From positions 1 through 26,938 of the forward strand of contig QNBZ01000001.1 in the NCBI GenBank assembly GCA_003644295.1: a stretch of DNA of 26,938 nucleotides, given 5' to 3'. This DNA comes from Planctomycetota bacterium (GTDB lineage: Bacteria > Planctomycetota > Phycisphaerae > Sedimentisphaerales > Anaerobacaceae). The position numbers and the translations under genes were made by a program. Each line of letters opens with the position of its first letter. Within the stretch, counting starts at the first letter, position 1. The notes beneath the pieces were generated by a model. It was not told where the DNA came from and searched no databases. It worked only from the letters and a program-made list of their open reading frames with translations. This document shows positions 2 through 22,295 of the stretch, piece by piece.

Positions 2-1369
2 CCTTGGTCTATATCTATCATCATCAGTCCTTCTGTATTGTCCCATATCAGTCGTAGTACTGTAGTCATAAATAGAAACATTAAAGACAGCTTCTACTTC
101 GTCTGTAAAGAACGGTTCTTTCACATCGAACGTCGAAGTTCTGACAGAAGAGGGATACACAAACTGATTCGCGGAAGGATAACCCCTAATATATGCTGAG
201 AAGCGGATTGAATTAGAAGACCAGAATACATCTCCATAACTAACACCATCAATAGACCAGTCTTTGTCAATGTCTGGCTCGCTTGACAAGTCATCAGTAT
301 AATTGACTGAATTAATGTAACCAACTTTCCACCATTTATCGGAATCTGCATCCGGAACTCGAAAGACCAACCAATACTGAACACCTTCATCAAGAGCAAT
401 AGATGATGCAGGTTGCGCCCAAGAAGATATAGTCCCTTCTTCTGAGATTGGGATATCTTCTGCATACCACATAAATTGTTGTTCGGTAATCTTTTCCTCC
501 GGATGAGCAGAGCCTGAATATACCTCGGCTACCATAAGATATGCTGGTGAGTCCGAATGAGTATATCTTCCTCTAACCGCTGTAAGCACGTTCCGATATA
601 AGCTCGGAGGGGTAGCAAAGGCTTGAGCCGCATATTTGCCGGGAGAGTCTAATGTGATAAATCCAGCTGATGAAGGAGCAAACGCTTCAGGAATTACAGC
701 CTCGAAGTTTTGAGAGCCTATAACCACGACATAGTTTTTAATATTATCATCTGCATGCTCTAATGGAGACATCTTTAGGATATCTTCTTCATTAACCGTA
801 AATTGGACAGCATCTGATACCTTGTAATATTGTAGTTTTCCGTTTTCATCAACATAGAAATGATAGCCGTCAAATTTGGAGATTCTCGATATTGCATCTC
901 CAAGCATCATATTCGAAAGGTCTATGTATTCTATGAATGACCCAGTATCTGGCTCGACGTCAGGAGGCTCAACATAATATCCAGAGCCTGAAGCATATGT
1001 TGCTACGAGCGATGATACAAGATATCCAGAATAAACCTGAGAGTATGTGCAGTTCTGTGGCAAAATAACTCTCCATAAATCATATGTCTTGCCTATACAC
1101 TGAATTCGAAGAATGGGTGAACCGAATAATTCAAGTTGCTTCCTAGAGATGTATCCAGCAAACTCCATTGAGTCTTGAATGTAAATCACAACTGGATTGT
1201 TGACTTCCGTTAACTCGTTTATTGTAGTACCCGAAACCATAATACGAAAGACTGCAGATTTGTAGGAACTCTCATATGAATCCGATATCTCAAGATTCTC
1301 TAAATATGACTCATCAAGATGTAATGCATTCTCAGTCCCGCTATTAATATAGATATCTATCAGACTCAT
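2..1369 (-). CDS. Baseplate hub / Tal-like tail tip protein (T4 gp27 / Mu gp44-like fold), 3'-truncated by the window edge
   Basis: Not in the ORF track. ATG at 1369 overlaps the tape measure TGA (ATGA); hand translation is open for 456 codons to the edge: MSLIDIYINSG...MEFAGYISRKQLE...LRIQCIGKTYDLW...LGDAISRISKFDGYHFYVDENGKLQYY...IKNYVVVIG. The FxGxI and GYxFYVDxxGxL patterns and the position after the tape measure fit hub proteins. Confidence 0.75.
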   Translation of the reverse strand, partial: MSLIDIYINSGTENALHLDESYLENLEISDSYESSYKSAVFRIMVSGTTINELTEVNNPVVIYIQDSMEFAGYISRKQLELFGSPILRIQCIGKTYDLWRVILPQNCTYSQVYSGYLVSSLVATYASGSGYYVEPPDVEPDTGSFIEYIDLSNMMLGDAISRISKFDGYHFYVDENGKLQYYKVSDAVQFTVNEEDILKMSPLEHADDNIKNYVVVIGSQNFEAVIPEAFAPSSAGFITLDSPGKYAAQAFATPPSLYRNVLTAVRGRYTHSDSPAYLMVAEVYSGSAHPEEKITEQQFMWYAEDIPISEEGTISSWAQPASSIALDEGVQYWLVFRVPDADSDKWWKVGYINSVNYTDDLSSEPDIDKDWSIDGVSYGDVFWSSNSIRFSAYIRGYPSANQFVYPSSVRTSTFDVKEPFFTDEVEAVFNVSIYDYSTTTDMGQYRRTDDDRYRPR

Positions 1370-4300
1370 ACAGCCGTAGCTCTTGCCTTAAACTTCAATT
1401 CATTGAGAAATTCATCGATATTCGTAACGCCTTGGATAATTATGGGACCGTGAATAACATACTCTTCTCTGTTCTCTTCTATTGGTGTTGGTAGTCTTCC
1501 ACCTACATAAGCACCATATTGGAGTTTTAAATCAGGGAAATAACGAGGAATAATTGATTTAAGTAAGCGTTCACCATATCTCCTATACCGACCACCAAGT
1601 GGTATAACAGCCTCCGGTCCAGCCTCACCAAGAAGTGCATTTACAGGTCCCTTAACTATCGCTTTACCTAGCGTTCTCGGATTAAGTGGCTTTGGAATAC
1701 TTCTTGCAGCATTCATAATAGAGGTAGCCACACCAGCTAATCCGCCAAATGCATAAGGCCAAGGTATCTGTCCAGCTTCCATAAGTTCAGCAAGTTTTTT
1801 CCTCATTAGGTCGACAGCAGCTTGTAAACTCTTCGTCGTTGCAATCACCTGCTCTTTCCCTTGTTGAGAAATAGCAACAACTCCCCAATGTCCTAGCGGA
1901 ATTCCACTCCTACCACCTGGACGCACAACATAGGTCTTGATATAATCGACGGGTGTGGCTGCACCACCGCCACCTGCACCTCCGCCTGCACCACCTCCAG
2001 CTCCTCCGCCTGCACCGCCGCCTGCACCACCAGTCATACCTTCTGTAATGGTTCTAATTATCAGCTCAAGAATCCACTTGCCCATCGGTGATTTTGTGAA
2101 ACCTGCTCTTTCAAGCATTTCTGTAACTCTATTGATGAAATTCTGTGTATCCAAGACTGTATCAATAGTGAGCTCAGGATTGTTTGTGTCGAGAATAATC
2201 TGAAGAGCGCGTAATCTTTCTGGAGTGAGATGATTAAGAAATGTATTCCAATCTTCAGAATCCCATTTTGTAATCACATCAACAGATTGGCCTGATAAAC
2301 TCGAAACAGCTTCTAAGAATTGCCTGCGTTTTTCAACTGTCATAGAATTGATGAATGCGTCCCAGTCTTGGTCATCCCAGGAAGTAGTAATACTGAGTGT
2401 AAAGTCCATATCTTGCGAACGCATATATTTCATTAATTCTTGAAAATCACCATGGAAGCCCTTGAGGAGCATATCTGCAAAGTCATATCGGAGAGCGTAT
2501 TGGAATAAAGCTTCACTGCTTTTGTAATAAAGTGATATCATCTCTTTTAGAGTATCATTCATTGTATTGAGGACATTGGTTAAAGATTCTTTCAAGTCTG
2601 CTAATTCAGTAGTGATATCATACATTGCTTCTTCTTGAGAGTATGCATCTTCGACTGCATCAACAAACGCATCAAGAGATTCGACTTGCAATGCTGTTGC
2701 TATTTGAGCAAGAGTCATGCCATCTGCATACTCTCCAGTGATTTCTGCTATCTTCACTAACGCTGCAGCCGCTATCAATTGAGCATCTGTGAATTCGCTG
2801 AGAGAGTCGTAATTCGTCTGATACAGAGTATTCAATGTCTGGAGTATTTCTTCTGCAGTGCTTCCAAAAACATTCGTAAGATTTAAGCGTGATATCAACT
2901 CATCATATATTGATGCAACATTATCAACTTCTCCTGCTTCGTCCTGAAGAGCTCTTGCCAATCTCGCTATTATACCAGCAACACCATCTATTGACTCAGC
3001 TAAATCTTCACTCACTCCGTACATTTCAAGTTCGTAAGAGATGGCTTCTCCAGTGTTATCAATTAAATCTAAGAATTCTTTAATCACTTCAGCCGAAGCA
3101 GCGCCTATTTCTTCTAGGCTTGATACTAGTGGTGTAAGAACATCTTTGAATGCACCTATAGCATCATTCAATTCCTGCTGCGCTTCTCTGTAAGCAATAA
3201 CTATAGAAAGCTCCTCATCAGTAAGGAAGGTAAGTTCATCCAAACCTTCTCCGGTGTTTATATAGTTGTCAACCAGCTGACGCTGTTCTTCATTTAGACG
3301 TTCATAAACTGCAGCCAACTTCGGATTTAATGCAAGTAATTTACCTTTTGCTCTCATCATCTGTGCATATCCGTCTATAAGGTCCTGATTTATCAAACCT
3401 TCTTCTGCAAGTTGTTTGAACAATTCATCAAGTTGCTCATCTTCTCCAGTTCTCAGTTTATAGAGCTTGTATTCAATTTCATAAAGTTTCTTCCTAGCTT
3501 CATATAGTAATTTAGCTTTTTCTGCTAGAGCTCGTTCACCCTTCTCCAATAAGAACTGATATGCCTGCTCTTTAGCTTCAAGCGATGTTATTTCAGCCTC
3601 AATCTGAATATAACGTTCACGAAGGTCTATTAAATCTTCTGCAGTCCTCAGCAAATCCTTCTGCACATCTGTCAGCATCATAATCGTCTTACCTTCCGCA
3701 GTTTCAACTTCTACGCCATGTTCCATTATATATTGCAATTGTCTACGCAATGTTGCCAATTGTTTTGTAGTTTGTGCATTTTGCTCCTCCAATTGCATAC
3801 GCTCTCGCATTGCAGCAAATAATTTATATTCAGCATTTCTAACCTCATTTGATTGAGCACCATAAATTGCAATAGCATTTGCTAAATCCTTAATTGCTTG
3901 CTCTTCTTCTCTCAATGCAGCATTTAATTCATTTTGAGCAACGAATAATTCATAAGACTGCTGAGCCATATCTTCGAGTAGTCCAACAATCTTATCGAAA
4001 GGACCTGGCAAAGCTCTCATAGCCTGTAGGAAGTTCTTAAGAGAAGTTAAGAAGTCTTTCCGTGCATCCTCAGCTTCACGCTCTGCTTGGACATATGTCT
4101 CTACAGCTTCTCTCACTCGTCTATAATCATCAGCGGCGGTACGAAGAACATCATTTAATGCACTTTGAGTATGCGCTAGCCTGTCATTAGCTTCTCTTAA
4201 TCTAGATACAGAATAACTGAGTCCAACTAACTCTCCGGCAAGCGGACCAAGAATTTTAGCAGCTTCAAAATATGTGGTCTTGAATATCTCTATGAAGGCA

Positions 4301-6381
4301 TCTTTGATTTCCTGATACATCCTCATATCAACTGGATAATATCCACCGGTATATATCACGTTCCATGCAAGTGTAACAACTCCTTCGACTGATACTTCTT
4401 TACCGAGTCTCTTCTCTAATTCGCTAGCAACTTCTTGCCAGACATCCATGTAATCTCTTGCATTCTCAACCATATGTCTAAATGCATGCTTTGCAGCTTC
4501 GTCCATATTTTTCGTCTCTCTCAGATATCTATTGCCAACTTGAATTATTGAATTCCTCCATTCCTCAGAGAAATGAATACTTTCGAGTAGAGTGAGATTC
4601 AGACTCCTAAGTTCATCTTTTGCTTTTCTTGCCGAGCTGCCGAAGAGAATAAAGTAGCTAACTGCGGTGCCTAATGCAATGAGAAGTAGTGTGATAGGAT
4701 TCTTGAGCATTGCCGCATTAAGTGCTCTTTGTGAAAGTGCGGCAGCACCTGTCGCAGCAGCAAGCGTCTGTTGAGCTTTAGCATATAATTCGGCTGCTAT
4801 AGCTGCTTGGAATGTAATTTTCGCATTTCTACTCAATGCAGCAGCTTGAAGGAGCTGGAGACCTATGACGTATTTAGTCATGAAGGAGACGACAGCCATT
4901 GCAGCCTTGTAACCAATCAAAAGCGAAATAAGAATCTTGAGTGGAGGAAGAACTACAGTCTTCCATTTTCTGAAGCCTGCTGATATAGCTTCTATCATTG
5001 GAACAACCTTTGCTCTTATTATACTAGCACCCCACTCGAACATTGGAATGAGTGATTGTCCTAGAGTGATAGAAGCAGCTTGAAGAGCATTAGAAAGCTT
5101 AACTAATGCACCCCAAAGAGTCCTCTCCTGATATTTTGCAACCGATTCTGTGATTCCCTGAGACATTTCGAGCATCGCTGCAAACCGTGCAACATCATCA
5201 GCTGCATCGACGAGAACCATTGCAGATGCAGCCGTCCTAGCCCTGAACATTGCAGCAGCTTCTGTTGCACCAAAACCAGCAGCCTTAAGCTTATAAAGTA
5301 TCTCAACTAAATTATAGTATTTTGGATTTACATCATCTGCAGTAAGTCCTAATTGCTCAAGAGCTTCAGCCGCTTGGTCTGTCGGCTTTAGCAATCTGGT
5401 GAGTATCATATTGAGCCTCTGTCCTGCTTGTGAACCCTCTAAACCTCTATCAACCAATGCCGATACTGCAGCTACGGTTTCTTCGAGAGATAGACCTAAA
5501 GAGCCTGCAGTTGCACCAACATATTTCATAGCTTCTCGTAATCTTTGGAAGTTCATGAAAGACTTTGTTATAGCTGCGGTGAATACATCGACTACTCTTG
5601 CAGTTTCTGACATATCAAGATTGAATGATTTCAATACGGTGAGAACTGCATATGTGGCATCTTCTAATGAAGTTTGGGTTGCAGCAGCATAGTTAAGAAT
5701 TGGGATGAGTTCCTTCTTTGTAAGCTTGGAAACATCATAACCAGCTGATGCAATCTGATAGAAAGCCTTAGCAACATCAGTAGCTGAGAAAACTGTTTCC
5801 TTAGAGAGAGTCAGTGCAAGCTTTGAAAGGTGGTCAACAACTTCATCGAATGCATCGCCAAGATAACCAGAGATTGTCGCAGCATTAACTATTGCTCTCT
5901 GGAATTCTTTAGTGCTTTCAGCCATCTCTCTGAATCCTCGAACAATTGACATTACTAGTTGTACACCAATTGTGAATGTGATATAGTGAGCAATCTTTGC
6001 AATCAAATTCCTAAAGGAGAAGATGATTCTGAGTGTTCCCAATATGGATTCTCGAGACCTGCGATACATCATAGAAAATGCTGCTGGCAGCTCTTTGCTG
6101 ATATCCGTTTTCATCTTTTGTGTTGCCTCTCTGGTCTTTTCTGCGGCTTTATCAATTGCGATTTGAGCTTTAGCAGTAGACTGCGCAGCAGCTTTAGTTA
6201 TATTCTTTACAGCCTTCTCAAATTGCTGTGCAGTGACTCCGAATGGTTTAAAACCTGCTGCGATTTCTTTAGAGATGGCATTAAGTCCAGCTTGGAGTAC
6301 TTTTCTAAATTGCTTTAGCTGTCCTGCAATTCCTCGGAAATCGAGGACTAATCTAACCGATAATTCACCAAGGGAAGGCAT
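1366..6381 (-). CDS. Tail tape measure protein (TP901-type core), 1671 aa
   Basis: Long Ala/Leu/Glu helical protein with the core FSATDVAKAFYQIASAG...LREAMKYVGATAGSLGLSLEETVAAVSALVDRGLEGSQAG, hydrophobic segments, and the C-terminal GEAGPEAVIPL motif typical of tape measures. Confidence 0.95.
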   Translation of the reverse strand: MPSLGELSVRLVLDFRGIAGQLKQFRKVLQAGLNAISKEIAAGFKPFGVTAQQFEKAVKNITKAAAQSTAKAQIAIDKAAEKTREATQKMKTDISKELPAAFSMMYRRSRESILGTLRIIFSFRNLIAKIAHYITFTIGVQLVMSIVRGFREMAESTKEFQRAIVNAATISGYLGDAFDEVVDHLSKLALTLSKETVFSATDVAKAFYQIASAGYDVSKLTKKELIPILNYAAATQTSLEDATYAVLTVLKSFNLDMSETARVVDVFTAAITKSFMNFQRLREAMKYVGATAGSLGLSLEETVAAVSALVDRGLEGSQAGQRLNMILTRLLKPTDQAAEALEQLGLTADDVNPKYYNLVEILYKLKAAGFGATEAAAMFRARTAASAMVLVDAADDVARFAAMLEMSQGITESVAKYQERTLWGALVKLSNALQAASITLGQSLIPMFEWGASIIRAKVVPMIEAISAGFRKWKTVVLPPLKILISLLIGYKAAMAVVSFMTKYVIGLQLLQAAALSRNAKITFQAAIAAELYAKAQQTLAAATGAAALSQRALNAAMLKNPITLLLIALGTAVSYFILFGSSARKAKDELRSLNLTLLESIHFSEEWRNSIIQVGNRYLRETKNMDEAAKHAFRHMVENARDYMDVWQEVASELEKRLGKEVSVEGVVTLAWNVIYTGGYYPVDMRMYQEIKDAFIEIFKTTYFEAAKILGPLAGELVGLSYSVSRLREANDRLAHTQSALNDVLRTAADDYRRVREAVETYVQAEREAEDARKDFLTSLKNFLQAMRALPGPFDKIVGLLEDMAQQSYELFVAQNELNAALREEEQAIKDLANAIAIYGAQSNEVRNAEYKLFAAMRERMQLEEQNAQTTKQLATLRRQLQYIMEHGVEVETAEGKTIMMLTDVQKDLLRTAEDLIDLRERYIQIEAEITSLEAKEQAYQFLLEKGERALAEKAKLLYEARKKLYEIEYKLYKLRTGEDEQLDELFKQLAEEGLINQDLIDGYAQMMRAKGKLLALNPKLAAVYERLNEEQRQLVDNYINTGEGLDELTFLTDEELSIVIAYREAQQELNDAIGAFKDVLTPLVSSLEEIGAASAEVIKEFLDLIDNTGEAISYELEMYGVSEDLAESIDGVAGIIARLARALQDEAGEVDNVASIYDELISRLNLTNVFGSTAEEILQTLNTLYQTNYDSLSEFTDAQLIAAAALVKIAEITGEYADGMTLAQIATALQVESLDAFVDAVEDAYSQEEAMYDITTELADLKESLTNVLNTMNDTLKEMISLYYKSSEALFQYALRYDFADMLLKGFHGDFQELMKYMRSQDMDFTLSITTSWDDQDWDAFINSMTVEKRRQFLEAVSSLSGQSVDVITKWDSEDWNTFLNHLTPERLRALQIILDTNNPELTIDTVLDTQNFINRVTEMLERAGFTKSPMGKWILELIIRTITEGMTGGAGGGAGGGAGGGAGGGAGGGGAATPVDYIKTYVVRPGGRSGIPLGHWGVVAISQQGKEQVIATTKSLQAAVDLMRKKLAELMEAGQIPWPYAFGGLAGVATSIMNAARSIPKPLNPRTLGKAIVKGPVNALLGEAGPEAVIPLGGRYRRYGERLLKSIIPRYFPDLKLQYGAYVGGRLPTPIEENREEYVIHGPIIIQGVTNIDEFLNELKFKARATAV
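1963..2031 (-). repeat. Gly-Ala low-complexity repeat GG(AGGG)5G inside the tape measure
   Basis: Direct translation GGAGGGAGGGAGGGAGGGAGGGG; 12-nt degenerate DNA period. Confidence 0.95.
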
Positions 6382-6532: not shown

Positions 6533-6542
6533 TTTGAGCCTA

Positions 6543-6851: not shown

Positions 6852-6873
6852 ATCTTCTTAGAGATATTGACAT

Positions 6874-9440: not shown

Positions 9441-12400
9441 GCTTCAGGTCCAGGTATATTCCACGTTCTGGTGTCACCAACTTTGGTATACACTACAGTG
9501 AACTTATCAATCTCTACATTTAAATTAGAGAAGCCAACAACATATATCTCCCATTCGTAAGTGCTGTTATCCCAATAGCCTATAACTTCGCCGTCTTCTA
9601 AGCCTGCGTCATCAACGATGTCTGATAGCGTTGTAGTTGAGCCAGTATAACCAGTATAGTTAGCTCCTTTATTTGTTGAATTGATTAGAAGGACTGTTCT
9701 TGTAGCGCTGTAATTGATGTAGTTATTGGGAGTTGCATATATCTCAACGGTTCCGGTATCAGTGAGATAAATTCTAATGACATCGTAGGTGTGGATATAG
9801 AAGTCTTCGCCGGTGCCATCACCATAATAGAATATCCAAAGACCATTCTCAGAATCCCAAGTTGTGCCATTCCAGATTGCAATATATTCGGATGCCTCAT
9901 CGAATCCCGGAATGTCTTCAACAGCTTCAGACGCTGTGCAATTCTTTCCAACCCATATGAAATAGTCTTCTCCATCTGCACGAACTACCATGCGGAATGT
10001 GGACTTGACTTGAATATCAGGGTCATTTACTGTTCCATCTTCTCCATCGAAAGCGTAGAACAATATGTCATAGACGCCGGCCTTTAGTGTAGTGGAATAA
10101 GAATATAAGGCTCCGGTTAAATTATCACCAGAAACATATGTCATACTTGCATTTAAATACCATCCAGGTTTAGTGATATTAACTTTTATCTCACTTGGAG
10201 AATCATTATCTGGGTCAGAATATGTGATATTAAAATAGAAAACCGTGCTGCTTGCCTCTCCGACCGATGGTGTCGCTGACGGATTAGATAGTGTTGGCGG
10301 TGTGTTTTCAATAGTTCCTTCAATGTAAAGAGATGTACATCTGATTTTCGGTGATGGTATCGCCATAGCCGGGTCAAAGTAGAAACCAACCTCTAAGTTT
10401 GTCAAATCATTAGCTGTCCAGTTTTCATTTGTGAAGGGGTTCTTTGAAATATAGACGATAAATGTTTGGTAGTTTGTGTTGTCAACCCTTATCTTCGCAA
10501 TTCTTGTTAGTTGAAAGCCGGATTTCAATGTGACATATAGGTGATTATATGTACCACCGGTTGCTCTCGACACTATAACTATCTTCAAATATTTAAGCTT
10601 CGATGTCGTATCTTCAAAATTAAATGTCTCTTCGCCGATACCACCCTCGATGTATGTTGTGTCGCTATCGTGAGAAGAGCCATCATCGATACACTGCCAT
10701 TTGTAAGTTGCACCGTGTGCGGTAATATCATCATCATTGACTGTACCGTTGTCATTTGGAAGGAGAGTAAGGTCTGGTGTTGGATAATTTGTTCTGATAG
10801 TCTTAACAAAAGTCTTAGTTCTTGTCACGCCAGTCGATGAAATAGTATAGCGTAGAGTGTAGTTGCCATAGTCACTCATAAATGTTGTATTACTTATAGT
10901 TATCTGATTCTGCTCAGTGGAACCTACTCCTTCTTCCAGTGTTTGATACTCGCCATCAATTAGGCCTTCATATTTGTAGTAGTATGCATAACTTAATCCA
11001 TCAAGTCGACCATGAATTTGCGGCTGAAGTTGGTCGGTATCATTCTTTTCTATATAGAAGACTGACCAGCTGTTATCATAAGGATGTGTTTTGAACTTCA
11101 TGACTGCTTTGGAAGTGACAGAATCCGCTGTGCAAGTAACATTGATAAGATATGTTGTATCGGTGCTGGAGCATCCTGAGTACAGAGTTGAATAGATTCC
11201 GTAATTTTCCACATCACCATCAGAGAAAGATTTAGCGAGCTGCCAGTTTCCGTCTTTGAAATAAACATCTGCACTATCAATGTCCTTATTGTTGAAATTG
11301 ATAAATTTGAATTTAGCATAGGGATGACCTGGAATGCTGAATGTATTGTTCTTCATCGTGGGGCCGTAAACCTCAATGTTTGTGTATTCTGGATACTTTG
11401 GACGAAGAGTGGGGTCACCAAGTACTGATAATCCAGAAAAGGATGTTGTAAAGCCCTTTTCGTTCAATAAATTCATTATCGCATCACCGAATGTATAATT
11501 ATCTGCGTAGATGTATTGGATACACTGATACACAACAGGACCGCTGATAGTTTTTGTACTTCCAATAGTCATCACAGCCCCACCTACCTGCCAGAGAAGA
11601 ACTGGAAGAGTATCTTGGTTTGGAACATCATCCAGCCAAGCATTATCGCCACAACCGCAGGAAATCACGATAAAGGCTTTTTCTTCTGCACCAGTGTAGT
11701 TAAAACACCCATCATCTGGCGAATGGTCTGGGTCTTCCCACCAGTAACCTCCATGAGCCCTGACGAGATACATATAGAAGCCCTCTGTATAGCCTTCATG
11801 AGTTCCATTAAGATATTCCGTCATTTCGGATGAATTATGCACACTCTCATTAACACAGTGGTCAAAGCCCGGCGATTCCGGTGAGTCTAAGTAACCAACA
11901 TTGTCGAGGATGTTGAGATAGGTGTAATTCAGATAATCAGTCCATATTTCGTCATTCACTTCATATGTGCTTATGTTCATTGAGTACATAATGACGTTTT
12001 TATTAATCTCGGCATCATATGCCCGTGCTTCGTAAGCCTTTGTTTTATTGAACCAAGCATAGAATTGTGAATCTGTCTCGAAAGGAACTCTACCAACTGG
12101 AATATCTATCTTACCATCACTTAAATCGCTTCCGCCTTCACAGAAATAATCATCGTCGTCTTTGTTCTGTGTGCCGTTAAGTGCACCAAAGTACCACATG
12201 TCGACTGTTGCTACATCGTCCCACATTGGCTCTGATTCATAAGTCAACCTGTATGCTGTCTTACCAAATATCAATACAGCTTTGATAGCATTATCATTGT
12301 AAACTTTATCACGAATGAAATTTCTTACTTTACAAGCGGTATCATTGTAACCAGAAGCTGCATTCCAAGAAGACTGAGAAACATACCATGGATTTGAAGG

Positions 12401-14434
12401 ATTTTTGTCACCCCATGTCCCATCTGCCCAATAGTCTTCATCGTTTACAATGCTGTCTATGGTCTTAATGTAAACAACATATTCTGTGTTTGCCTCTTTC
12501 CACTCTTTGTATTCTGTCGCCAAATCATAGTCGCTTGCATCACAAATTACATAGATATGTGGACTGGTGGTCTTAAAATGCCAGATATCAGAAGAAGTAT
12601 TATGGATTGAATCATCAGCATAAACTCGCCAATAATATGTCGTTCCTTCTTCCGTAAATTCACTATAGGTATGAGAATAAGTTGCATTAGGTTCCTTATT
12701 TGTATCCGTTCCATCGTAATACCAAGTTGAGCCATCATAGGAATAGTACCATGAGATATTGAGAGTATCGCCATCTTCATCTGCAAAGTATGCTGAACAT
12801 GTAATACCACTTGGTGAAACAGGGATATCAACTGAGCCGTTTGCGGGATTAGGATTAGAGATGGTAGGTGCTTGGTTTGAAGTTACAGAATAAGTAATTC
12901 TCATTTTGATATAATCAACCTGACTTGCAGCGGATTGACCTGAAGAATTTACTACTCCTTGAGCAAATAGTTTGAAGTTTGAATTCGAGAAATCGTTTGG
13001 AACCCATTTGTGTGTTCCCCATAAATCATTACTACCACCTACAGAGACCGCTTCTTCTGAAGTACTTTCAAACTGTATTATTTTACTTTCGCTCCAGCTG
13101 CTTCCTCCATTCCATGAAAGTTTGACCGATATTCGAGAGTCATCTGGTTGAGGTATTACAAGCAATATATTACCCTCAAATACTACTTCAATACCCTTAA
13201 TAGTTGCATAACTTGGAATGTCAACATCGAATGTATAATAGTCCTCTTCATCCTTATCAGAGGAGCAATATACGATAGCATAATTGGCATCATCTTCTAA
13301 GGCATTTTGCGGATTCGTCCATTCGTTCTTGATGGAACCATAGTTCTCAGGGTCAAACCAATCAGTTGTGTGTGTCTCGCCCTCAGTGTGGAAGTGATAT
13401 GTCTCACTCACGTTTTCTGTTCCATCATCAACATATACCCGCCACCAATAAGTTTGGTCGTATTGATAAAATTCTTCATATGTATGAGAAACTGTTGTGT
13501 TTGCAGAAACGGTTTCTGTTGCGACATTATGCCATTCTCCTGTTGAAGCGTTTGTAGCCCACGTGACTGTGAGAGTGTCTCCGTCTTGGTCGCTGACATA
13601 TACAGAACAAGTAACTCCAGCATCTGATACTGCAACATTAGTAGAACCATTGGATGGATTTTCGTTGGATAATTCAGGTGCGGTGTTTCCGCCTGTAGTA
13701 TAATAGACAGTTATCCTAACATGGTCAATAAGAGCACTTCCACCATCTGGAGCATCTACTTTAGCAGAAATCGCAACACCAAACTTATCATCATTTATAT
13801 CATCAGGTGTCCAACTTGCTCCCCACAAATCATTGTCTCCACCATATGATGCATAGGCATCAGAGTCTGGCCAATGTGTATTAGTATCTGCCTTATCATC
13901 TCCAACAACTTCATCATATTTTATCAACCGTATGCTGTAATCAACTATATATCCATTCTTTAAATCCGCTTTCCTCTCGACTTCCACTTTTATACCATTT
14001 ATAGTCGCACCCGATGGAATGTTAAATCCGTATTGTTGAGTCCATAGATAATGAGTTCGAAAGATGCCCTTATATTCAGCATACGCATATTTATTGTCGG
14101 AGTCACAAGCACAATCTGGGTCTCTCCAGTCTATGGTCCCGACTTCATTATTATTTATTGCCTTATTGGGACTATTTGGTCCCTGAGAGTCCAAAGTGCC
14201 GGCTGTTGGAATTAGGATTGATGATGCAAGTAATGTGCTCGCTATTAGAAATTCTTTCCATCTACGCAATATAATATCCTTTGAAAATATCACTATAAGA
14301 CCTGAAGTGAATGCTGCGACTATAAACCCGAGAAGAGGAGAAATGTGCAGACCTGCTAGGCCAAAAATTCCCAATAATCCGCAGGTTAGGAGACTGAATA
14401 CCGCTATAAGAATTACCAAATCTAGCTTTTTCAT
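9437..14434 (-). CDS. Membrane-anchored/exported multidomain gingipain-like (peptidase C25) cysteine protease, 1665 aa
   Basis: N-terminal hydrophobic segments (aa ~4-78); two jelly-roll-like + Ig-like (NxAPxxSNxNPxNGS...YxWRVYxDD) pairs; C25 domain aa ~626-1012 with KVRNFIR, AVLIFG, DxWYFG, DIPVGRVP, RAHGG (His894), ISCGCG (Cys926), FGDA and LGDPTL; further beta domains; about 37 N-x-S/T sequons by hand count. Confidence 0.88.
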   Translation of the reverse strand: MKKLDLVILIAVFSLLTCGLLGIFGLAGLHISPLLGFIVAAFTSGLIVIFSKDIILRRWKEFLIASTLLASSILIPTAGTLDSQGPNSPNKAINNNEVGTIDWRDPDCACDSDNKYAYAEYKGIFRTHYLWTQQYGFNIPSGATINGIKVEVERKADLKNGYIVDYSIRLIKYDEVVGDDKADTNTHWPDSDAYASYGGDNDLWGASWTPDDINDDKFGVAISAKVDAPDGGSALIDHVRITVYYTTGGNTAPELSNENPSNGSTNVAVSDAGVTCSVYVSDQDGDTLTVTWATNASTGEWHNVATETVSANTTVSHTYEEFYQYDQTYWWRVYVDDGTENVSETYHFHTEGETHTTDWFDPENYGSIKNEWTNPQNALEDDANYAIVYCSSDKDEEDYYTFDVDIPSYATIKGIEVVFEGNILLVIPQPDDSRISVKLSWNGGSSWSESKIIQFESTSEEAVSVGGSNDLWGTHKWVPNDFSNSNFKLFAQGVVNSSGQSAASQVDYIKMRITYSVTSNQAPTISNPNPANGSVDIPVSPSGITCSAYFADEDGDTLNISWYYSYDGSTWYYDGTDTNKEPNATYSHTYSEFTEEGTTYYWRVYADDSIHNTSSDIWHFKTTSPHIYVICDASDYDLATEYKEWKEANTEYVVYIKTIDSIVNDEDYWADGTWGDKNPSNPWYVSQSSWNAASGYNDTACKVRNFIRDKVYNDNAIKAVLIFGKTAYRLTYESEPMWDDVATVDMWYFGALNGTQNKDDDDYFCEGGSDLSDGKIDIPVGRVPFETDSQFYAWFNKTKAYEARAYDAEINKNVIMYSMNISTYEVNDEIWTDYLNYTYLNILDNVGYLDSPESPGFDHCVNESVHNSSEMTEYLNGTHEGYTEGFYMYLVRAHGGYWWEDPDHSPDDGCFNYTGAEEKAFIVISCGCGDNAWLDDVPNQDTLPVLLWQVGGAVMTIGSTKTISGPVVYQCIQYIYADNYTFGDAIMNLLNEKGFTTSFSGLSVLGDPTLRPKYPEYTNIEVYGPTMKNNTFSIPGHPYAKFKFINFNNKDIDSADVYFKDGNWQLAKSFSDGDVENYGIYSTLYSGCSSTDTTYLINVTCTADSVTSKAVMKFKTHPYDNSWSVFYIEKNDTDQLQPQIHGRLDGLSYAYYYKYEGLIDGEYQTLEEGVGSTEQNQITISNTTFMSDYGNYTLRYTISSTGVTRTKTFVKTIRTNYPTPDLTLLPNDNGTVNDDDITAHGATYKWQCIDDGSSHDSDTTYIEGGIGEETFNFEDTTSKLKYLKIVIVSRATGGTYNHLYVTLKSGFQLTRIAKIRVDNTNYQTFIVYISKNPFTNENWTANDLTNLEVGFYFDPAMAIPSPKIRCTSLYIEGTIENTPPTLSNPSATPSVGEASSTVFYFNITYSDPDNDSPSEIKVNITKPGWYLNASMTYVSGDNLTGALYSYSTTLKAGVYDILFYAFDGEDGTVNDPDIQVKSTFRMVVRADGEDYFIWVGKNCTASEAVEDIPGFDEASEYIAIWNGTTWDSENGLWIFYYGDGTGEDFYIHTYDVIRIYLTDTGTVEIYATPNNYINYSATRTVLLINSTNKGANYTGYTGSTTTLSDIVDDAGLEDGEVIGYWDNSTYEWEIYVVGFSNLNVEIDKFTVVYTKVGDTRTWNIPGPEA

Positions 14435-16185
14435 ATTATGCTACCAGCCATGAAGCCTAGACATTTGACATCATCATCGTCGCTTACAGAGGCTCCTGAA
14501 TAAATTATTCGTATGGTGACATTTGAGCCTGCATCGACACTCGCAAGCGGATTGCCAATTTTCACAACATTACTCGATGTTGAATAAATTACGGTGCTTC
14601 CGCTGAGGAGCTCAATCTTTAAATCAGCCACAGAATTGCCATCAACATCTGATATGCAAGCCTGCCAGAGATAGAAGGATTTATTGCTTGGTAATTTGAA
14701 TCGTGCAAGTCTAATATAACGATTTCCTTTGAGACCAACTGCTGGAGAAGCAAACGTCAGGGGAGGAAGTGTATTTTGCCAAGAGCCATCCAAATAAGTG
14801 AGTGTATGTCCATCTGCCTCAGAGTCGATTGAAGTATCGGATAAATCAGACAGTGCATGAGTGTGTGTTGCAGAGGCGAAGGATGATGCATCATAAGAAG
14901 AAGATTTTATTTTATCTTCACCGGAATCATAAACAAGGAATTTGTCTGCTGTGAATGATGAATTGTTTGTTCCACCATTGCTAACAGCAAGAATGCCAGT
15001 AGCATTAGATAAATCTCTGTCAGAAGAGTGGTAATGTAGGTCTGTATCTCCACCACCAGTTAATGCATCTTTCTGAGTGGCAGTTAGGTGGATAGAAGAG
15101 TCCTGAGAGTGGTCATAAGCAGTATTCCAATTGGCAGAGTTGTCTGTTACATAAGAAGTAGAACCACCAGCGATTTTAACTAACCCATCAAAAGACGAGA
15201 CATCAGCGTTGAGGCCTCCACGCTCATATGCCAAAGTTCCAGAGTTTATATCAGAAGCATCATGAGTGTGAGTAGCTGGAGCAAAGGAATTTTCATCATA
15301 TGATGTTGATGCCAGCTTACTACCGTCATACGCAATGAACTTTCCAGTGGTGAATGAAGAATTATTTGTTCCACCATGGTCAATGGATAATATACCTGTC
15401 GCATTTGATAAATCCCTATCACTTGAATGATAGTGAAGTGAGCTATCACCGCCATCTGTCAAATCGTCTCTTTGAGTTATTGTGAGCTTTCCATAAGTCG
15501 TACCATCGGGAACATCATCAAGAGAAACTTGGTTTGTGCCAGTTCCCCAATCTATGTGGCTACTCTTTACTGTATCATTGGCGTCTTGAATTGCACCGAC
15601 TTGAGAATAGGTTACGTTGTGCGGATTGGATGTATTTGTAATATGGTCATGACCCGTAGAAGAGGGGAAATAGTTCTCATCGCACTGACTCTTTGTATAG
15701 TATCTATCATCATGTAAGTGAGAGCCGGAAGCAACTTGGTCGCTGCCGCTACCTATTTTGTTTTCATCAACTAAATCATCATAAGCAGAAAATCTAGCTG
15801 TGGAAAGCGTTCCAGATGTAATATCGCTAGCATCATGCGTATGCGAAGCAGGAGCAAAAGATGAAGAATTATAGGTTGTAGATGCAAGTTTCGTTCCGTC
15901 ATATGCAATGAAATAACCATCTGAGAAGCTCGTATTGTTTGTGCCTCCATGAGAAATGTCCAACACGCCGGTTGCATTTGATAGGTCTCTATCGGCTGAA
16001 TGATAGTGTAATGATGTGTCACCACCACCAGTGAGTTGTGATTTCTGTTCTGGTGTGAGATGAATATTATTATTGGAAGTATGCAATGCTAACTGACCTG
16101 ATATTCCTTCTGTGTAATCCACAAAATCATTCCAGTCTTCAGCAAGTATTATATCGCCTGGAGATTTTGTATCGTTAAATGCCAT
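14431..16185 (-). CDS. Tail fibre-like protein with His-x-His repeats, 584 aa
   Basis: Three ~85-aa repeats (LTGGGDxxLHYHSxDRDLSNATG...GGTNN...HTH), NPHxVTxxQVG motif, eight HxH motifs, distinct C-terminal beta domain. Confidence 0.8.
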   Translation of the reverse strand: MAFNDTKSPGDIILAEDWNDFVDYTEGISGQLALHTSNNNIHLTPEQKSQLTGGGDTSLHYHSADRDLSNATGVLDISHGGTNNTSFSDGYFIAYDGTKLASTTYNSSSFAPASHTHDASDITSGTLSTARFSAYDDLVDENKIGSGSDQVASGSHLHDDRYYTKSQCDENYFPSSTGHDHITNTSNPHNVTYSQVGAIQDANDTVKSSHIDWGTGTNQVSLDDVPDGTTYGKLTITQRDDLTDGGDSSLHYHSSDRDLSNATGILSIDHGGTNNSSFTTGKFIAYDGSKLASTSYDENSFAPATHTHDASDINSGTLAYERGGLNADVSSFDGLVKIAGGSTSYVTDNSANWNTAYDHSQDSSIHLTATQKDALTGGGDTDLHYHSSDRDLSNATGILAVSNGGTNNSSFTADKFLVYDSGEDKIKSSSYDASSFASATHTHALSDLSDTSIDSEADGHTLTYLDGSWQNTLPPLTFASPAVGLKGNRYIRLARFKLPSNKSFYLWQACISDVDGNSVADLKIELLSGSTVIYSTSSNVVKIGNPLASVDAGSNVTIRIIYSGASVSDDDDVKCLGFMAGSII

Positions 16186-16187
16186 AT

Positions 16188-16889
16188 TTATTCATATTTC
16201 ATTTCGACATTACCATTCTCGTCAGCATACAGCATAACTTTATAATTTCTACCAGCAATGGTTTCCTGAAAGCCGACGACATATAACCGCCATCTTCGTT
16301 CGCGAGTATATTGCTTGCTTGTCACTCTTATTAGTTCAAGATAGCCACCACATTTTGGGCAATGACCATGTCCACCCTTCTCAGGTGGAGTGGATTCAGT
16401 AGCGCTGAATAAATCGTATTTCTCTCCACATTGCTTACATTGCCAATAGTCGTGTTTTCCACAATGTGGACAGATTGGAGAACGCCAGTAGGAATCTCCA
16501 AAGAATTTGACGCTTCCAGTAGCCTGAAATTCTTTACCACAATTCTCACAAATTCTAAACTCTTCAATTGAGATAAAATTCCTCATAAAGAGGATAAAAC
16601 GTTTATTCTTATTAATCTCAACTTCAATTTTCGGAAGAAGAGGATTGGAAATTGCAGGTATCCCACGCTTATTCAATTCAACAGCTAAATCATATGGAAT
16701 GGGATACCAACCAATCTTAACCAACTTAGAGTTGTCAATAATCTTAATAGAGTTCTCTTTAAATGTATTCAAATCAAACTGACTTGCATAGGTTCCATCA
16801 TTATAATGTGCTATCCAAAAATATACGAGAGGGCGAGGCTGGGATGCCATTTCCACCGCCTTGTATGGCTTGTAATCTCCAATAAACAT
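16188..16889 (-). CDS. Hypothetical protein with four CxxC motifs (double zinc ribbon), 233 aa
   Basis: CENC, CPHC, CKQC, CPKC at aa 114-180. Confidence 0.8.
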   Translation of the reverse strand: MFIGDYKPYKAVEMASQPRPLVYFWIAHYNDGTYASQFDLNTFKENSIKIIDNSKLVKIGWYPIPYDLAVELNKRGIPAISNPLLPKIEVEINKNKRFILFMRNFISIEEFRICENCGKEFQATGSVKFFGDSYWRSPICPHCGKHDYWQCKQCGEKYDLFSATESTPPEKGGHGHCPKCGGYLELIRVTSKQYTRERRWRLYVVGFQETIAGRNYKVMLYADENGNVEMKYE

Positions 16890-16895
16890 TAAACA

Positions 16896-17522
16896 TTACG
16901 CCTCATCATACACGAACGTTGCAGTCTTCAAGTCCTTCAGGCCCGGTGTAGCTCCTGGACCAACAATAAGCTGTGTAACTACCAGATGTGACTGTCCTGT
17001 CTGAGAGGATGTGAATGCAACTCCAGCTTGTACCATAAGCGCGCTAGACTGCGAGGAGAAGTGTGTTATGCTCGTATACTTTCCAGGCGTAGATGAATAG
17101 TATGAGTGTGTCGTCTCGAGGGGGTCTCCAGTCTCACCTTCCGTACCAGTTGCCTGGTCGTACTGGCTAAATGGACATCCTTGTGTTTTCGTTCTCCAAT
17201 CACTCTCTGAGCTTGAAGAGACACCGACTATTAAATCACCGCCAGTTCCTAACTCCCAGTCATCATGTGGAGAGCTATCCCAAGTCTGATAATATCTGAT
17301 ATCTTTGATGTGTGTAGATGGCGGACTCGTAACGTCTAAACAGTGGCTCTTCCAATAGGAACGATTGGTCCCACTATCTGGAATCGGGATTGGATAGTCA
17401 GTTAGATTGGATTCTGGTCTGTCTGCAGTGTAGTATCTCGATGGATTGGATGTATCCTTCAGTGTGAGTGTGGGAGATGCTTCAGAACCTGTAACTTCCT
17501 TAATATATACCGTTGCAGGCAT
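16896..17522 (-). CDS. Hypothetical Ser/Thr-rich beta protein, probably structural, 208 aa
   Basis: Clean ORF co-oriented in the tail operon; ends TATFVYDEA; no family recognised with certainty. Confidence 0.75.
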   Translation of the reverse strand: MPATVYIKEVTGSEASPTLTLKDTSNPSRYYTADRPESNLTDYPIPIPDSGTNRSYWKSHCLDVTSPPSTHIKDIRYYQTWDSSPHDDWELGTGGDLIVGVSSSSESDWRTKTQGCPFSQYDQATGTEGETGDPLETTHSYYSSTPGKYTSITHFSSQSSALMVQAGVAFTSSQTGQSHLVVTQLIVGPGATPGLKDLKTATFVYDEA

Positions 17523-17578
17523 ATTCCATCTATACTCTATTTAAACATGAAGAGAAACATGAAATATACATCCAGAGC

Positions 17579-17785
17579 TCACTTACGTCTGAACCTCCGC
17601 TTCTTCTGTTCTTGCAGCATCTTCTTATATTGCTGTTCTCTGAGCTCAGCAAGATACAGCAAATATCTTTCTATAAACATCATGCCAATAGGGTCTTCAC
17701 GTCTTAACCGTCCGAGTTGTTTCGGTGTTACCCGGAAGAATTCACAAAGCTTTCCTTCGAGAAGGCCTAAATCACTCTTTACGAA
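17579..17785 (-). CDS. +1 frame extension of the tail assembly chaperone (G-T-like product, ~230 aa in total)
   Basis: Not in the ORF track. 68 open codons FVKSDLGLLEGKLCEFFRVTPKQLGRLRREDPIGMMFIERYLL...KKRRFRRK in the +1 frame; that frame is closed by TAA ~9 codons upstream and has no ATG until codon 35. Confidence 0.75.
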   Translation of the reverse strand, partial: FVKSDLGLLEGKLCEFFRVTPKQLGRLRREDPIGMMFIERYLLYLAELREQQYKKMLQEQKKRRFRRK

Positions 17786-18272
17786 AGGATTCGAGTTCTT
17801 CCTCGCTGATTAATGTGGAGCGTTGAGTAGCTGCTATGAGTTCGAATATGAAATTTTGGAGAGTCGTAAAGGAGACATGTTTTGACCAGAATTCTTCGTC
17901 TAGTTTTTCATCAACGGAAAGCCTAGCAGCAAGCTTAGGCAATTTCTGATATATCTCGGCCATCTTAGCTAAAGAGTCTGGGTCAGCACGTCCTTCGTAT
18001 TTCGCAGCTTCGGCAGAAAGCATCAATATATCTATCATTTCTTGTGGACTTGGCTTCTTTGCCTTTATTGTTCGCTTCGTTTCAGGTGATGTATAGAATG
18101 TCACAAAGATTGTATCTTCCTCATAATCTCTTTCAAGTTTTTCTCTAGTTGCGAGCTGTCTGAGCAGTTCAATTTTCTTCTTTTCTTCAGTCTTCTTCAA
18201 TTTTTCTAGGAACTCCTTCTTTTCCTCTTCACTAACATTTGGTCTTGTTTGGGACGTCTGCTTTTCAGCCAT
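17772..18272 (-). CDS. Tail assembly chaperone, 166 aa
   Basis: Acidic helical protein directly after the tail tube genes; ATG 18272 with AGGAGG 8 nt upstream; ends at a candidate frameshift site. Confidence 0.8.
   Translation of the reverse strand: MAEKQTSQTRPNVSEEEKKEFLEKLKKTEEKKKIELLRQLATREKLERDYEEDTIFVTFYTSPETKRTIKAKKPSPQEMIDILMLSAEAAKYEGRADPDSLAKMAEIYQKLPKLAARLSVDEKLDEEFWSKHVSFTTLQNFIFELIAATQRSTLISEEELESFRKE
17781..17789 (-). promoter_or_regulatory. Candidate +1 programmed ribosomal frameshift site TCC_TTT_CGT
   Basis: In-frame TCC TTT CGT AAA GAG TGA at the chaperone 3' end; TTT to TTC slip keeps Phe; identical to the influenza PA-X +1 motif UCC_UUU_CGU. Confidence 0.7.
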
Positions 18273-18280
18273 CAACAGAA

Positions 18281-18286
18281 CCTCCT
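18281..18286 (-). promoter_or_regulatory. Shine-Dalgarno AGGAGG for the chaperone gene
   Basis: AGGAGG 8 nt upstream of ATG 18272. Confidence 0.7.
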
Positions 18287-18330: not shown

Positions 18331-18774
18331 TCAGAAGTCTTTGATGTATGTTCCACCGCCAGGCAGATATGTCACCGAAGATACTTTGTATGGCATTAGC
18401 AATGAAAAGTCTATGGACCCTTCAGTAATTGTGGACGCATCTCCAATGGATATATCAAATCCTGTTATCTGAGCAGATTTAAAGTAGAAGTGCAGAGATT
18501 TGTCGCCAACGCATCCAGATATTTCAACCGTATTACCATTTATAAGAGCCTCCAATAAAGCTCCAGCAGCTGAATGAGATAACTTTGCAGCTGTTAGAGA
18601 GCCCTCAACGCTGATTGGACCTTGCATATAGAAGTTTCCTTTTTCACCGACCAATGGCTCTTCAATGGTATCTCTTGAAAGAGTCAATGAGAAGTCTGAA
18701 ATACCTAATGCAGCATGAGACAGTCCTTTGATTGTTATGCTCGCATTTTCTCCGGTATAGGTTTCAGTCGCCAT
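18331..18774 (-). CDS. Tail tube protein paralog 2, 147 aa
   Basis: GISDFSLTLSRDTIEEPLVG...SVEGS...FDISIGDA...GSIDF tube-fold pattern; clearly homologous to the adjacent gene. Confidence 0.8.
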   Translation of the reverse strand: MATETYTGENASITIKGLSHAALGISDFSLTLSRDTIEEPLVGEKGNFYMQGPISVEGSLTAAKLSHSAAGALLEALINGNTVEISGCVGDKSLHFYFKSAQITGFDISIGDASTITEGSIDFSLLMPYKVSSVTYLPGGGTYIKDF

Positions 18775-18775
18775 A

Positions 18776-19222
18776 TTACGACGCGTCTGTTATATATCCA
18801 TTGGAGTAGGTCACATTATATGGGTCCATCACTGTAAAGTCGATAGACGCCTCTGATATCGTATCTGCATCGCCTATTGATATGTCATAACCAGTAATCT
18901 GGCATGAGACGAAGTACCAGCGGAGAGAGCCATCAGACACGCAACCAGATATTTGGACGTATTCTGATTCTACGATACTCTTGAGAGAGTCTGCAGCACC
19001 GGAAGCAGCAAACTTACAATTCGTGAAAGAACCTTCAACGGAAAGACCGCCTATTTTGAAGTAGTTACCAGGCATTCCAACGAGCTCCTGTTCAACTGTA
19101 TCTCTCGAAAATGTTAAGGAGAAATCAGATATTCCCCAGAGTTGGTGCCCTTTATTTGGCAAATCTCCGGCAGATGTGGCGATGTAGATTTTTGCGTCCT
19201 TTCCGCTAACTATTCCTGCCAT
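18776..19222 (-). CDS. Tail tube (major tail) protein paralog 1, 148 aa
   Basis: Begins MAGIVSGKDAKIYI (typical GxxA tube start); GISDFSLTFSRDTVE; follows the terminator gene; ATG 19222 with AGGTGA upstream. Confidence 0.85.
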   Translation of the reverse strand: MAGIVSGKDAKIYIATSAGDLPNKGHQLWGISDFSLTFSRDTVEQELVGMPGNYFKIGGLSVEGSFTNCKFAASGAADSLKSIVESEYVQISGCVSDGSLRWYFVSCQITGYDISIGDADTISEASIDFTVMDPYNVTYSNGYITDAS

Positions 19223-19227
19223 ATTAT

Positions 19228-19233
19228 TCACCT
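19228..19233 (-). promoter_or_regulatory. Shine-Dalgarno AGGTGA (GGTGA type) for tail tube 1
   Basis: GGAGTAGGTGA-ATAAT-ATG. Confidence 0.6.
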
Positions 19234-21262: not shown

Positions 21263-22240
21263 CTACTTCGCGAGTATTCTTACTCCAGCCTTGTCGTCCA
21301 CTACTGCAACTCCATATCTCATGGTACACGATATACCGAGCAGGTCGTGTATTGGGTCATCATATTGTTCTATTGTTATATCTCTCCTCATTGCTATGAA
21401 GGCAGCATTCTTGGAATCGAGAACCAATGCATAGTAGTGGTTGTCCGCATCTGTACCATCCCAAGAGTATGTGAATCCGCTTTCAGTTGTAACCGACAGA
21501 GTGTATGGTCTCAGGCCAAGAATTCTCGGCAGTTCTCCAGTCTCGAGGGTTCTGCCCTGACCAGCATATGCAACGTAAACCAAGTTGCTGTCTTTAAGTA
21601 GCTGACCCTCTGCAATTGGATGGGTTATCAGTGTGTCAGGCAGTCTGCCCTCAGACTCAACAAGAGCTCTTGCAGTTGCTAAATCTGTGACTGACAAAGC
21701 AGTACCAGCTGGGTCGACATCCGTGATGCCATCAAGGTCCTTGAGTATTGCCTGGAGACAATCTCTGTTCAGTTTGTTCTCTAATCTGGCACCAGCCTTC
21801 TTCAGCTCGAGCTCAACGACGTCGAAGAGGGCATCCTCAATCAGTTCGTTTGTGATGAGTGGTCTTGTACCTATCTTCTTGATTGTAATGTCAGTCTTCG
21901 CATAAGAAGTTGTATCAATCGGTATCTCAGCTCCCTCAGCTATATCTTCTGCGTATGCATTACCCTGAGATGTGACGACTCTGACGGAGTAGGAATCCGT
22001 CTTTATAACTGGAAGAACATCTCTGAAGCATTTGTATGGCTCAGCGCCTTCGACTACCGTCTTATGAACCTCTTCCTGCAGAAGAGTCGTCTCGGAGATT
22101 GAATCAGACTGCAAAAGTGTCTTATATGTCTTGGAGTCTTTACCGCCAAGGTCGTGAATCACATGCGGGTTATTCAGGAGTCTCTTCCTCTCTGAGTTGC
22201 CAGCGTATGCAAGCTGGAGCAATCTTGTCAGCTTACTCAT
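21263..22240 (-). CDS. Major capsid protein, HK97 fold, ~325 aa
   Basis: IAEGAEIP, TIKKIGTRPLITNELIEDALFDVVELEL, LENKLNRDCL, ITIEQYDDP...SCTMRYGVAVVD motifs; ATG 22240 preferred to TTG 22249. Confidence 0.93.
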   Translation of the reverse strand: MSKLTRLLQLAYAGNSERKRLLNNPHVIHDLGGKDSKTYKTLLQSDSISETTLLQEEVHKTVVEGAEPYKCFRDVLPVIKTDSYSVRVVTSQGNAYAEDIAEGAEIPIDTTSYAKTDITIKKIGTRPLITNELIEDALFDVVELELKKAGARLENKLNRDCLQAILKDLDGITDVDPAGTALSVTDLATARALVESEGRLPDTLITHPIAEGQLLKDSNLVYVAYAGQGRTLETGELPRILGLRPYTLSVTTESGFTYSWDGTDADNHYYALVLDSKNAAFIAMRRDITIEQYDDPIHDLLGISCTMRYGVAVVDDKAGVRILAK

Positions 22241-22295
22241 ATATATCAAACGTCTTTCAAAACATCTTTACATACATACATTAGATGAGAGGAAC

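Follow-up and report, generated by a model that had tools for sequence, protein, structure and literature searches.

Comparative evidence for a probable +1 frameshift site, TTT CGT, in the tail assembly chaperone gene of a virus family from hydrothermal vents and marine sediments

The stretch of DNA analysed here (the window) is the 26,938 nt of contig QNBZ01000001.1, filed under a Planctomycetota bacterium (assembly GCA_003644295.1), and its genes, all located on the minus strand, make up the structural module of an uncultivated tailed virus found in hydrothermal-vent and marine-sediment metagenomes. Along the minus strand a DNA ligase gene is followed by genes for a protease fusion, an HK97-type capsid protein, head completion and tail completion proteins and two tail tube paralogues, then by an open reading frame (ORF) encoding 166 or 167 amino acids and by further tail genes (Table 1). 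This ORF, a putative G-type tail assembly chaperone gene, and the reading frame that overlaps its end are the subject of this study. The ORF can be read from a TTG at 18275 (17772..18275) or from the ATG one codon further on, which is the start used by its homologues, and it ends TCC TTT CGT AAA GAG TGA. The −1 frame closes at once at this point, whereas the +1 frame stays open for 76 codons between one stop and the next (17579..17809); the chance of an open frame of 68 codons at the local composition is about 1 %. An earlier note on this DNA had proposed that ribosomes shift into the +1 frame at TCC TTT CGT, two codons before the stop, and so enter an ORF of about 68 codons lacking its own start. 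The motif is indeed read at that position directly from the minus-strand sequence, the frame holds 67 sense codons and a stop after the proposed shift, and its first ATG, GTG or TTG is codon 43 of the 76. Also correct by translation are the product sizes then predicted, 166 and about 230 amino acids, and the predicted junction of ESF with VKS: when TTTC is read as one step, a single open product of 231 residues from the TTG, or 230 from the ATG, is obtained. The site is also covered by contigs of four further public metagenome runs, none of which shows an indel or variant from 17766 to 17831, and the frame break is therefore not an assembly error.

Homologues of the chaperone were found in public metagenomes as a set of 94 proteins (45–100 % identity), none of them annotated, all 135–173 amino acids long and nearly all beginning MAE or MxE. 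At the DNA level, 77 IMG/VR contigs and three contigs of metagenome-assembled genomes (MAGs) gave 80 loci, referred to below by L numbers, with 65 distinct sequences; most alignment counts refer to 64 of these. The in-frame TTT CGT is invariant in all 65 and present in each locus that extends to the gene end; it is the only run of six fully conserved (maximal-information) columns in an otherwise variable alignment, although outside the site TTT makes up only 52 % of the Phe codons and CGT 12 % of the Arg codons of the same genes. Its distance from the zero-frame stop varies, with no intervening codon in 42 of the 64 sequences, one in 12, two in nine and seven in one. The earlier note had likened the whole of TCC TTT CGT to the frameshift site of influenza PA-X. 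The TTT CGT part of that description stands; the TCC part does not belong to the conserved signal, since the preceding codon is TCC in only 36 of the 64 sequences and is otherwise AAA (20), ACC (five) or AAC, AAT or AAG (one each). Neither a consensus RNA structure (RNAalifold, from 60 nt upstream to 120 nt downstream; mean single-sequence z-score −0.7) nor, upstream of the site, a Shine–Dalgarno-like conserved block was found in the alignment of relatives. In L068, at first sight an exception, an in-frame TAA lies within the chaperone gene (around 4380–4400) where the relatives have a Ser codon, while the rest of the gene, TTT CGT TGA and the +1 ORF are kept; this TAA may reflect an error of sequencing or a nonsense mutation of recent date, or it may be read through.

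The +1 ORF is open for 58–79 codons in all loci and encodes a homologous peptide of about 65 amino acids. Within its first 54 codons no stop occurs in any of the 64 sequences, whereas both other frames are interrupted in every one of them (64/64 each). The synonymous share of codon differences is 33 % in the +1 frame, against 10 and 6 % in the other two, and variability is highest at third positions (entropy 1.14, 0.67 and 1.49 at codon positions one, two and three). Two tests that the earlier note had set for its own proposal, which it would have abandoned had the +1 ORF not been conserved or had it been translated from a start of its own, thus came out in its favour: across the relatives the ORF is conserved in every case, its codon pattern is that of purifying selection at the protein level, and no start is conserved. 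The first ATG, GTG or TTG lies anywhere from codon 0 to codon 44, some 15 loci have none, and gene callers cut the peptide at many different positions or miss this T part altogether. Conservation of the T peptide sets in with the first codon after TTT-C; its pattern is V.S..G..E...C..L..TP..LG..R..DP.G..F.E, to which a basic tail is attached. Most relatives have a +1-frame stop 11 nt ahead of the zero-frame stop, so that only about three codons are left for the shift, and in the window and L014 the first conserved T residues (V-K-S...) are encoded upstream of the zero-frame stop. As the T residues are conserved from the first one onwards and are encoded before that stop, the change of frame is placed at TTT-C itself, with F followed by V. 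No natural in-frame fusion of the two parts was seen among the 94 homologues, nor among 56 T-like matches, nearly all of 37–113 amino acids, in 1.84 billion representative proteins. The model of the T part has three helices [predicted local distance difference test (pLDDT) 89]; a Foldseek search with it against BFVD gave nothing significant, the best match being a 74-aa protein of Bacillus phage Finn (E 2), and scans of the peptide against Pfam and PHROG gave nothing significant either.

The assignment of the first ORF as a chaperone gene draws on its position, on its two-frame architecture and on its predicted fold. The two tube paralogues lie directly before it in all 80 loci; they have a weak Pfam DUF2001 tail-tube match (E 0.0028, under the Pfam gathering cut-off) as well as PHROG tail protein matches. 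A homologue of the 1671-aa tape measure protein of the window starts 3–6 nt after the T ORF in L064, L065 and L078/79, and in L039 homologues of the 208- and 233-aa genes that follow the chaperone in the window stand between chaperone and tape measure. The loci form a graded series, from a chaperone adjoining the tape measure gene (L064, L065, L078) through chaperone–208–233–tape measure (L039) to the long form of the window; homologues of the 208- and 233-aa genes occupy the same position in 42 and 38 related loci, respectively. The lambda-type features are present in that a second ORF, in a different frame and without its own start, overlaps the 3' end of the first. The lambda-type −1 shift on an X_XXY_YYZ heptamer is absent, only the +1 frame being open and conserved. 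The AlphaFold model of the chaperone (pLDDT 82) combines a long helix with a beta hairpin and a helical bundle, its best fold matches in BFVD are unnamed viral proteins (E 1e-5 to 3e-4), and in the ESM Atlas the nearest family-bearing clusters all belong to Phage_TAC families (scores 0.86–0.87, TM 0.40–0.58). Searches of the model with Foldseek against the PDB and with VIA-align wide gave generic helical matches only (Z 5.6 or less), and in 50,697 phage records tblastn detected no match to the chaperone or to the tube protein. Model-based likenesses to named chaperones are leads, not proof; with synteny and the two-frame architecture added, the assignment as a G/GT-type tail assembly chaperone is secure enough.

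We hypothesize that this gene yields two proteins of different length through programmed +1 ribosomal frameshifting at UUU-CGU, which we regard as very likely on the comparative sequence evidence. Most ribosomes would read TTT CGT AAA GAG and stop, releasing the 166-aa G protein. In a minority, peptidyl-tRNA-Phe (anticodon GAA) would sit on the P-site UUU while the scarce CGU in the A site waits to be read; during this pause the tRNA-Phe would re-pair one base forward on UUC, exchanging a G:U wobble for a G:C pair, the next tRNA would read GUA (Val), and translation would continue for 67 codons in the +1 frame. The product would be a GT protein of about 230 amino acids, in which a three-helix C-terminal module and a basic tail are added to the G part. 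By analogy with lambda gpG and gpGT, G and the G part of GT may coat the tape measure protein while the T part recruits tube subunits, in a ratio of G to GT that would be set by the efficiency of the shift. Slippage in the P site is the simplest reading.

Frameshifted chaperones and +1 sites of this kind have precedents. Forward shifts are known for chaperones, with 350 cases in the SEA-PHAGES set (PMC10885494), and in bacteria UUU_Ynn is prone to +1 shifting (PMC5009743). The haloarchaeal virus HSTV-2 has been cited as a likely +1 case (PMC5009743), and Dyall-Smith et al. (2020) proposed TTT-CGC, as a TTT-CGn motif like those of PA-X and the amalgaviruses, for the HF1-group haloviruses, stating that experiments were lacking (PMC7230728). 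This confirms the statement of the earlier note that a TTT_CGN +1 site had been proposed for some haloarchaeal tailed viruses; in the HSTV-2 pair of genes 22 and 23 the site is TCC TTT CGC, and the annotated join is consistent with a +1 shift. The HF1-group or Hafunaviridae myoviruses (HSTV-2) share with the window a chaperone gene after the tube gene, a start-less +1 ORF and TCC TTT CGN a few codons before the stop, with neither a classical slippery heptamer nor a known stimulator. They differ from the window family in that they are myoviruses of hypersaline hosts with GC-rich genomes and CGC in the A site, in that the tape measure gene is adjacent and the T part longer (about 105 amino acids), and in that no sequence similarity is detectable.

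The closest cultured relatives of the window capsid protein (27–30 % identity) are the Haloferuviridae, siphoviruses in which the chaperone gene likewise follows the tube gene (HFTV1 gp36/gp37, HRTV-4 64/65, HRTV-29 gp63/gp64). Their chaperones (HFTV1 gp36, HRTV-4 gene 64, HRTV-29 gp64) end ...GFRK.., where the window has ...SFRKE, with the site GGG TTT CGC AAA near the stop; unlike the window, they have GGG before TTT, and the first +1 codon is GCA (Ala) and not GTN (Val). Alignment of the window-family G and T profiles with HFTV1 gp36 and gp37 by hhalign was in register, although not significant (E 0.4 and 0.15). The products of the +1 ORF of HFTV1, HRTV-4 and HRTV-29 are mutually homologous, yet this ORF stands as a separate gene in the HFTV1 and HRTV-4 records and is joined by a −1 shift in that of HRTV-29, although the −1 frame so annotated is not conserved. 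Judged from these sequences, the records are likely to be wrong, a +1 shift at TTT_CGC being the probable correct reading.

Outside the archaeal viruses, lambda gpG/gpGT, an instance of the chaperone frameshift conserved in long-tailed phages, offers the same two products with a common N-terminal part from a gene between the tube and tape measure genes (Levin 1993; Xu, Hendrix, Duda 2004; as reviewed in PMC5009743). Lambda, however, shifts by −1 on a slippery heptamer, whereas the window would shift by +1 on UUU_C, has a T part of only 67 amino acids, and has 11 kb of fibre and surface-protein genes before the tape measure gene. The window virus is in this sense a +1 variant of the G/GT paradigm, as is known for some phages and likely for HSTV-2. 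Influenza A PA-X (UCC_UUU_CGU) and the amalgaviruses (UUU_CGN) have the same core and the same direction of shift without a stimulatory RNA structure (Firth 2012; Nibert 2016; as cited in PMC5009743 and PMC7230728), and share with the mechanism proposed here the re-pairing from UUU to UUC in the P site with CGN in the A site; they differ in their eukaryotic ribosomes, in being RNA viruses and in the unrelated proteins and functions concerned. The UCC that matters in PA-X is freely replaced in the window family, and is not required in amalgaviruses or Haloferuviridae. Frameshifting in PA-X is described as very low, and the molar ratio of G to GT in lambda is about 30:1 (PMC5009743). In prfB (CUU_UGA), too, the +1 shift takes place by P-site re-pairing beside a slowly decoded A site, but it needs a stop in the A site and a Shine–Dalgarno sequence 3 nt upstream, neither of which is conserved in the window family.

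The codon usage of these viruses bears on the proposed pause, as AGA accounts for 67 % of their Arg codons and CGN codons are rare. In 517 other genes, in-frame TTT_CGN was observed four times, where shuffling the codons within each gene predicts 12.4 occurrences (P = 0.005), a statistic drawn from related, non-independent genomes, while TTC_CGN was observed nine times against 7.5 expected. This depletion fits a codon pair that is shift-prone by itself and hence avoided. Across some 94,000 codons of the family's other genes only three further in-frame TTT CGT pairs occur (L009 2033, L010 2460 and L027 2514), one of them 13 codons from the end of a 106-aa head-completion-like gene. The window carries no tRNA gene and five large relatives only one tRNA-Gln, so a virus-encoded frameshift-suppressor tRNA is unlikely.

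Besides the relatedness of the genomes behind the depletion statistic, several observations count against a +1 shift at UUU-CGU in a chaperone gene. The fifth and sixth bases of the hexamer, G and T, are also the first two bases of the conserved Val codon of the +1 frame, and therefore invariance alone is no proof that CGU is needed as the A-site codon. Two other Arg codons, CGC and CGG, are rarer than CGT in these viruses. The haloviruses with the same site have CGC as the A-site codon, a common codon in GC-rich haloarchaeal hosts, and therefore a hungry-codon pause may not suffice as an explanation. As to the chaperone itself, its gene in the window virus lies 11 kb from the tape measure gene, behind fibre-like and surface-protein genes; the named matches in BFVD, which are tail assembly or tape measure chaperones, stand lower down the list and are weak (E 0.06–0.16); and no Pfam, PHROG or PDB sequence match was found for the family (39 homologues scanned; PDB profile search).

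One alternative is an independent small gene in the +1 frame, with a canonical or non-canonical start of its own or with ribosomes that reinitiate once they have terminated on the chaperone gene. In some relatives small proteins are indeed called from this ORF by gene-finding programs, a GTG is its first codon in L011, L053, L059 and L070 and a few relatives have an early start, and HFTV1 and HRTV-4 have a +1-frame ATG just before the site and are annotated accordingly. However, HRTV-29 is without this ATG and yet retains the site, no start position is conserved in the window family, and about 15 loci are without any ATG, GTG or TTG in the ORF. A protein begun at the first start available in the window would lose most of the conserved peptide, in which conservation sets in at the first codon after TTT-C with no Shine–Dalgarno-like sequence ahead of it. 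Moreover, independent initiation leaves the invariance of TTT at a synonymous position without a reason, and we consider a separate gene very unlikely.

The same frame might instead be reached by another form of recoding, as +1 and −2 shifts arrive in the same frame, and the comparative data do not separate P-site slippage from Ty3-like entry of an out-of-frame tRNA into the A site without slippage. A −2 shift would require re-pairing two bases back, which tRNA-Phe cannot do on CCU or AAU; tRNA-Arg, for its part, cannot re-pair on GUN. For a stop-dependent +1 shift of the prfB type, one codon later, it can be said that the stop follows directly on CGT in 42 of the 64 sequences, as in CUU_UGA; in the other 22, including the window, it lies one, two or seven codons off and so is not a common signal, there is no Shine–Dalgarno-like element 3 nt upstream, and T residues encoded ahead of the zero-frame stop are conserved. 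These other routes we likewise hold to be improbable in a high degree. The long form could also be made at the RNA level, transcriptional slippage being known to give two products from one gene (PMC5009743), but no homopolymer at the site exceeds T3 (A3T3 in some relatives), much too short for this. A fault of sequencing or assembly is contradicted by the recurrence of the same break, with no indel, in 65 independent assemblies and four further runs, and a decaying gene by purifying selection on both ORFs; an origin in RNA slippage, error or decay is scarcely credible. Programmed +1 frameshifting at UUU-CGU remains the preferred reading.

The window family is, then, a well-supported new and non-halophilic example of a +1 site already proposed in print for haloarchaeal viruses, and not a new kind of site. 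It is interesting to speculate that UUU_CGN is an ancestral, structure-independent +1 device for G/GT expression in a large part of the archaeal tailed viruses, linking Hafunaviridae, Haloferuviridae and the non-halophilic vent and sediment family (89–155 kb); this we put forward tentatively, as a possibility that we think somewhat unlikely. According to a 2021 review, +1 frameshifting has never been demonstrated experimentally in Archaea (PMC8211752), and if the proposal holds, the vent and sediment family would be the best-defined candidate for a first proof. The 65 natural site variants and the depletion of TTT_CGN would then report the intrinsic shiftiness of archaeal ribosomes on UUU_C before CGN. 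A six-base signal kept across these variants without accessory structure also makes an easy test cassette for archaeal or bacterial reporters, and the loss of TTT_CGN but not of TTC_CGN, which suggests that the pair is error-prone in the host, could become a sequence-only clue to host translation. As regards annotation, no gene caller recovers the T part of the window family in full, and curated records of haloarchaeal viruses appear to be wrong too. The window further indicates that a chaperone gene can sit 11 kb from the tape measure gene and retain its probable frameshift.

With regard to the host, the window contig is the largest of a fragmentary MAG (348 contigs) with a bacterial-type tRNA set that includes tRNA-Arg(ACG). 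The MAG has 45.7 % GC and even Arg codon usage, as against 40.5 % GC and 50 % AGA in the viral contig; the two share no sequence, and the MAG does not avoid TTT_CGT. The bin is for these reasons not trusted as an indication of the host, and the viral contig is probably mis-binned; the MAG labels of three relatives (Saccharibacteria, Desulfatibacillum and Actinomycetota) conflict with one another. We lean clearly towards an archaeal host. For the capsid protein and the family B DNA polymerase of the large relatives, haloarchaeal tailed viruses come first among cultured viruses; as further, weak clues, sigma-70-like promoters and intrinsic terminators were not enriched, and MCM and PCNA were not found in five large relatives. 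A relative of 89,379 bp (the record of L010), whose chaperone is 80 % identical, has direct terminal repeats, and its genome is therefore complete at about 89 kb; other relatives, which encode the family B polymerase, reach 115–155 kb.

Table 1. Features of the window discussed in the text, with the corresponding chaperone loci of cultured Haloferuviridae
Feature	Position	Strand	Remarks
HK97-type capsid protein gene	21263..22249	−	
Two paralogous tail tube genes	18776..19231 and 18331..18774	−	Directly upstream of the chaperone gene
AGGAGG ribosome-binding site	18281..18286	−	8 nt ahead of the chaperone ATG; read from the sequence
G-type tail assembly chaperone gene (putative), zero frame	17772..18272	−	166 aa from ATG 18272
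Zone with zero frame and +1 frame both open in the window virus	17772..17809	−	35 nt plus stop
Shift site TCC_TTT_CGT (proposed)	17781..17789	−	TCC 17789-17787, TTT 17786-17784, CGT 17783-17781
Slippery tetranucleotide TTT-C (proposed)	17786-17783	−	Proposed P-site codon UUU, A-site codon CGU
Zero-frame stop TGA of the chaperone gene	17774-17772	−	
T segment, 67 codons of the +1 frame after the proposed shift	17579..17782	−	Begins GTA (Val) at 17782; stop TGA 17581-17579
Two conserved genes 3' of the chaperone gene	16188..17522	−	208 aa (no function assigned) and 233 aa (zinc-ribbon, by zinc-ribbon matches)
Tape measure protein gene	1366..6381	−	1671 aa; 11 kb downstream of the chaperone gene
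Chaperone locus, HFTV1	MG550112.1 9157-9309		Haloferuviridae
Chaperone locus, HRTV-4	KC292023.1 980-1153		Haloferuviridae
Chaperone locus, HRTV-29	MZ334526.1 11892-12571		Haloferuviridae

The approximately 11 kb between the chaperone and the tape measure gene (6382-17578) encode, in addition to the 208-aa protein and the 233-aa zinc-ribbon protein, a 584-aa fibre-like protein, a 1665-aa surface protein, a 130-aa protein, a 728-aa repeat protein and a 102-aa protein. The first 62 or so residues of the fibre-like protein (14431-16185) recur at the start of longer proteins, from 737 to more than 1200 amino acids, and proteins of this kind, sharing the N-terminal 60 or so residues, directly follow the chaperone in L016, L023, L044, L051, L053, L056 and L067. 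The common N-terminal segment looks like a shared anchor module on exchangeable fibres. At the far end of the region, a small ORF on the minus strand (6365-6580, with an ATG at 6532 and about 55 codons), matched by no family, lies between the 102-aa gene and the tape measure gene, where it fills a gap of 160 nt and runs into the start of the latter.

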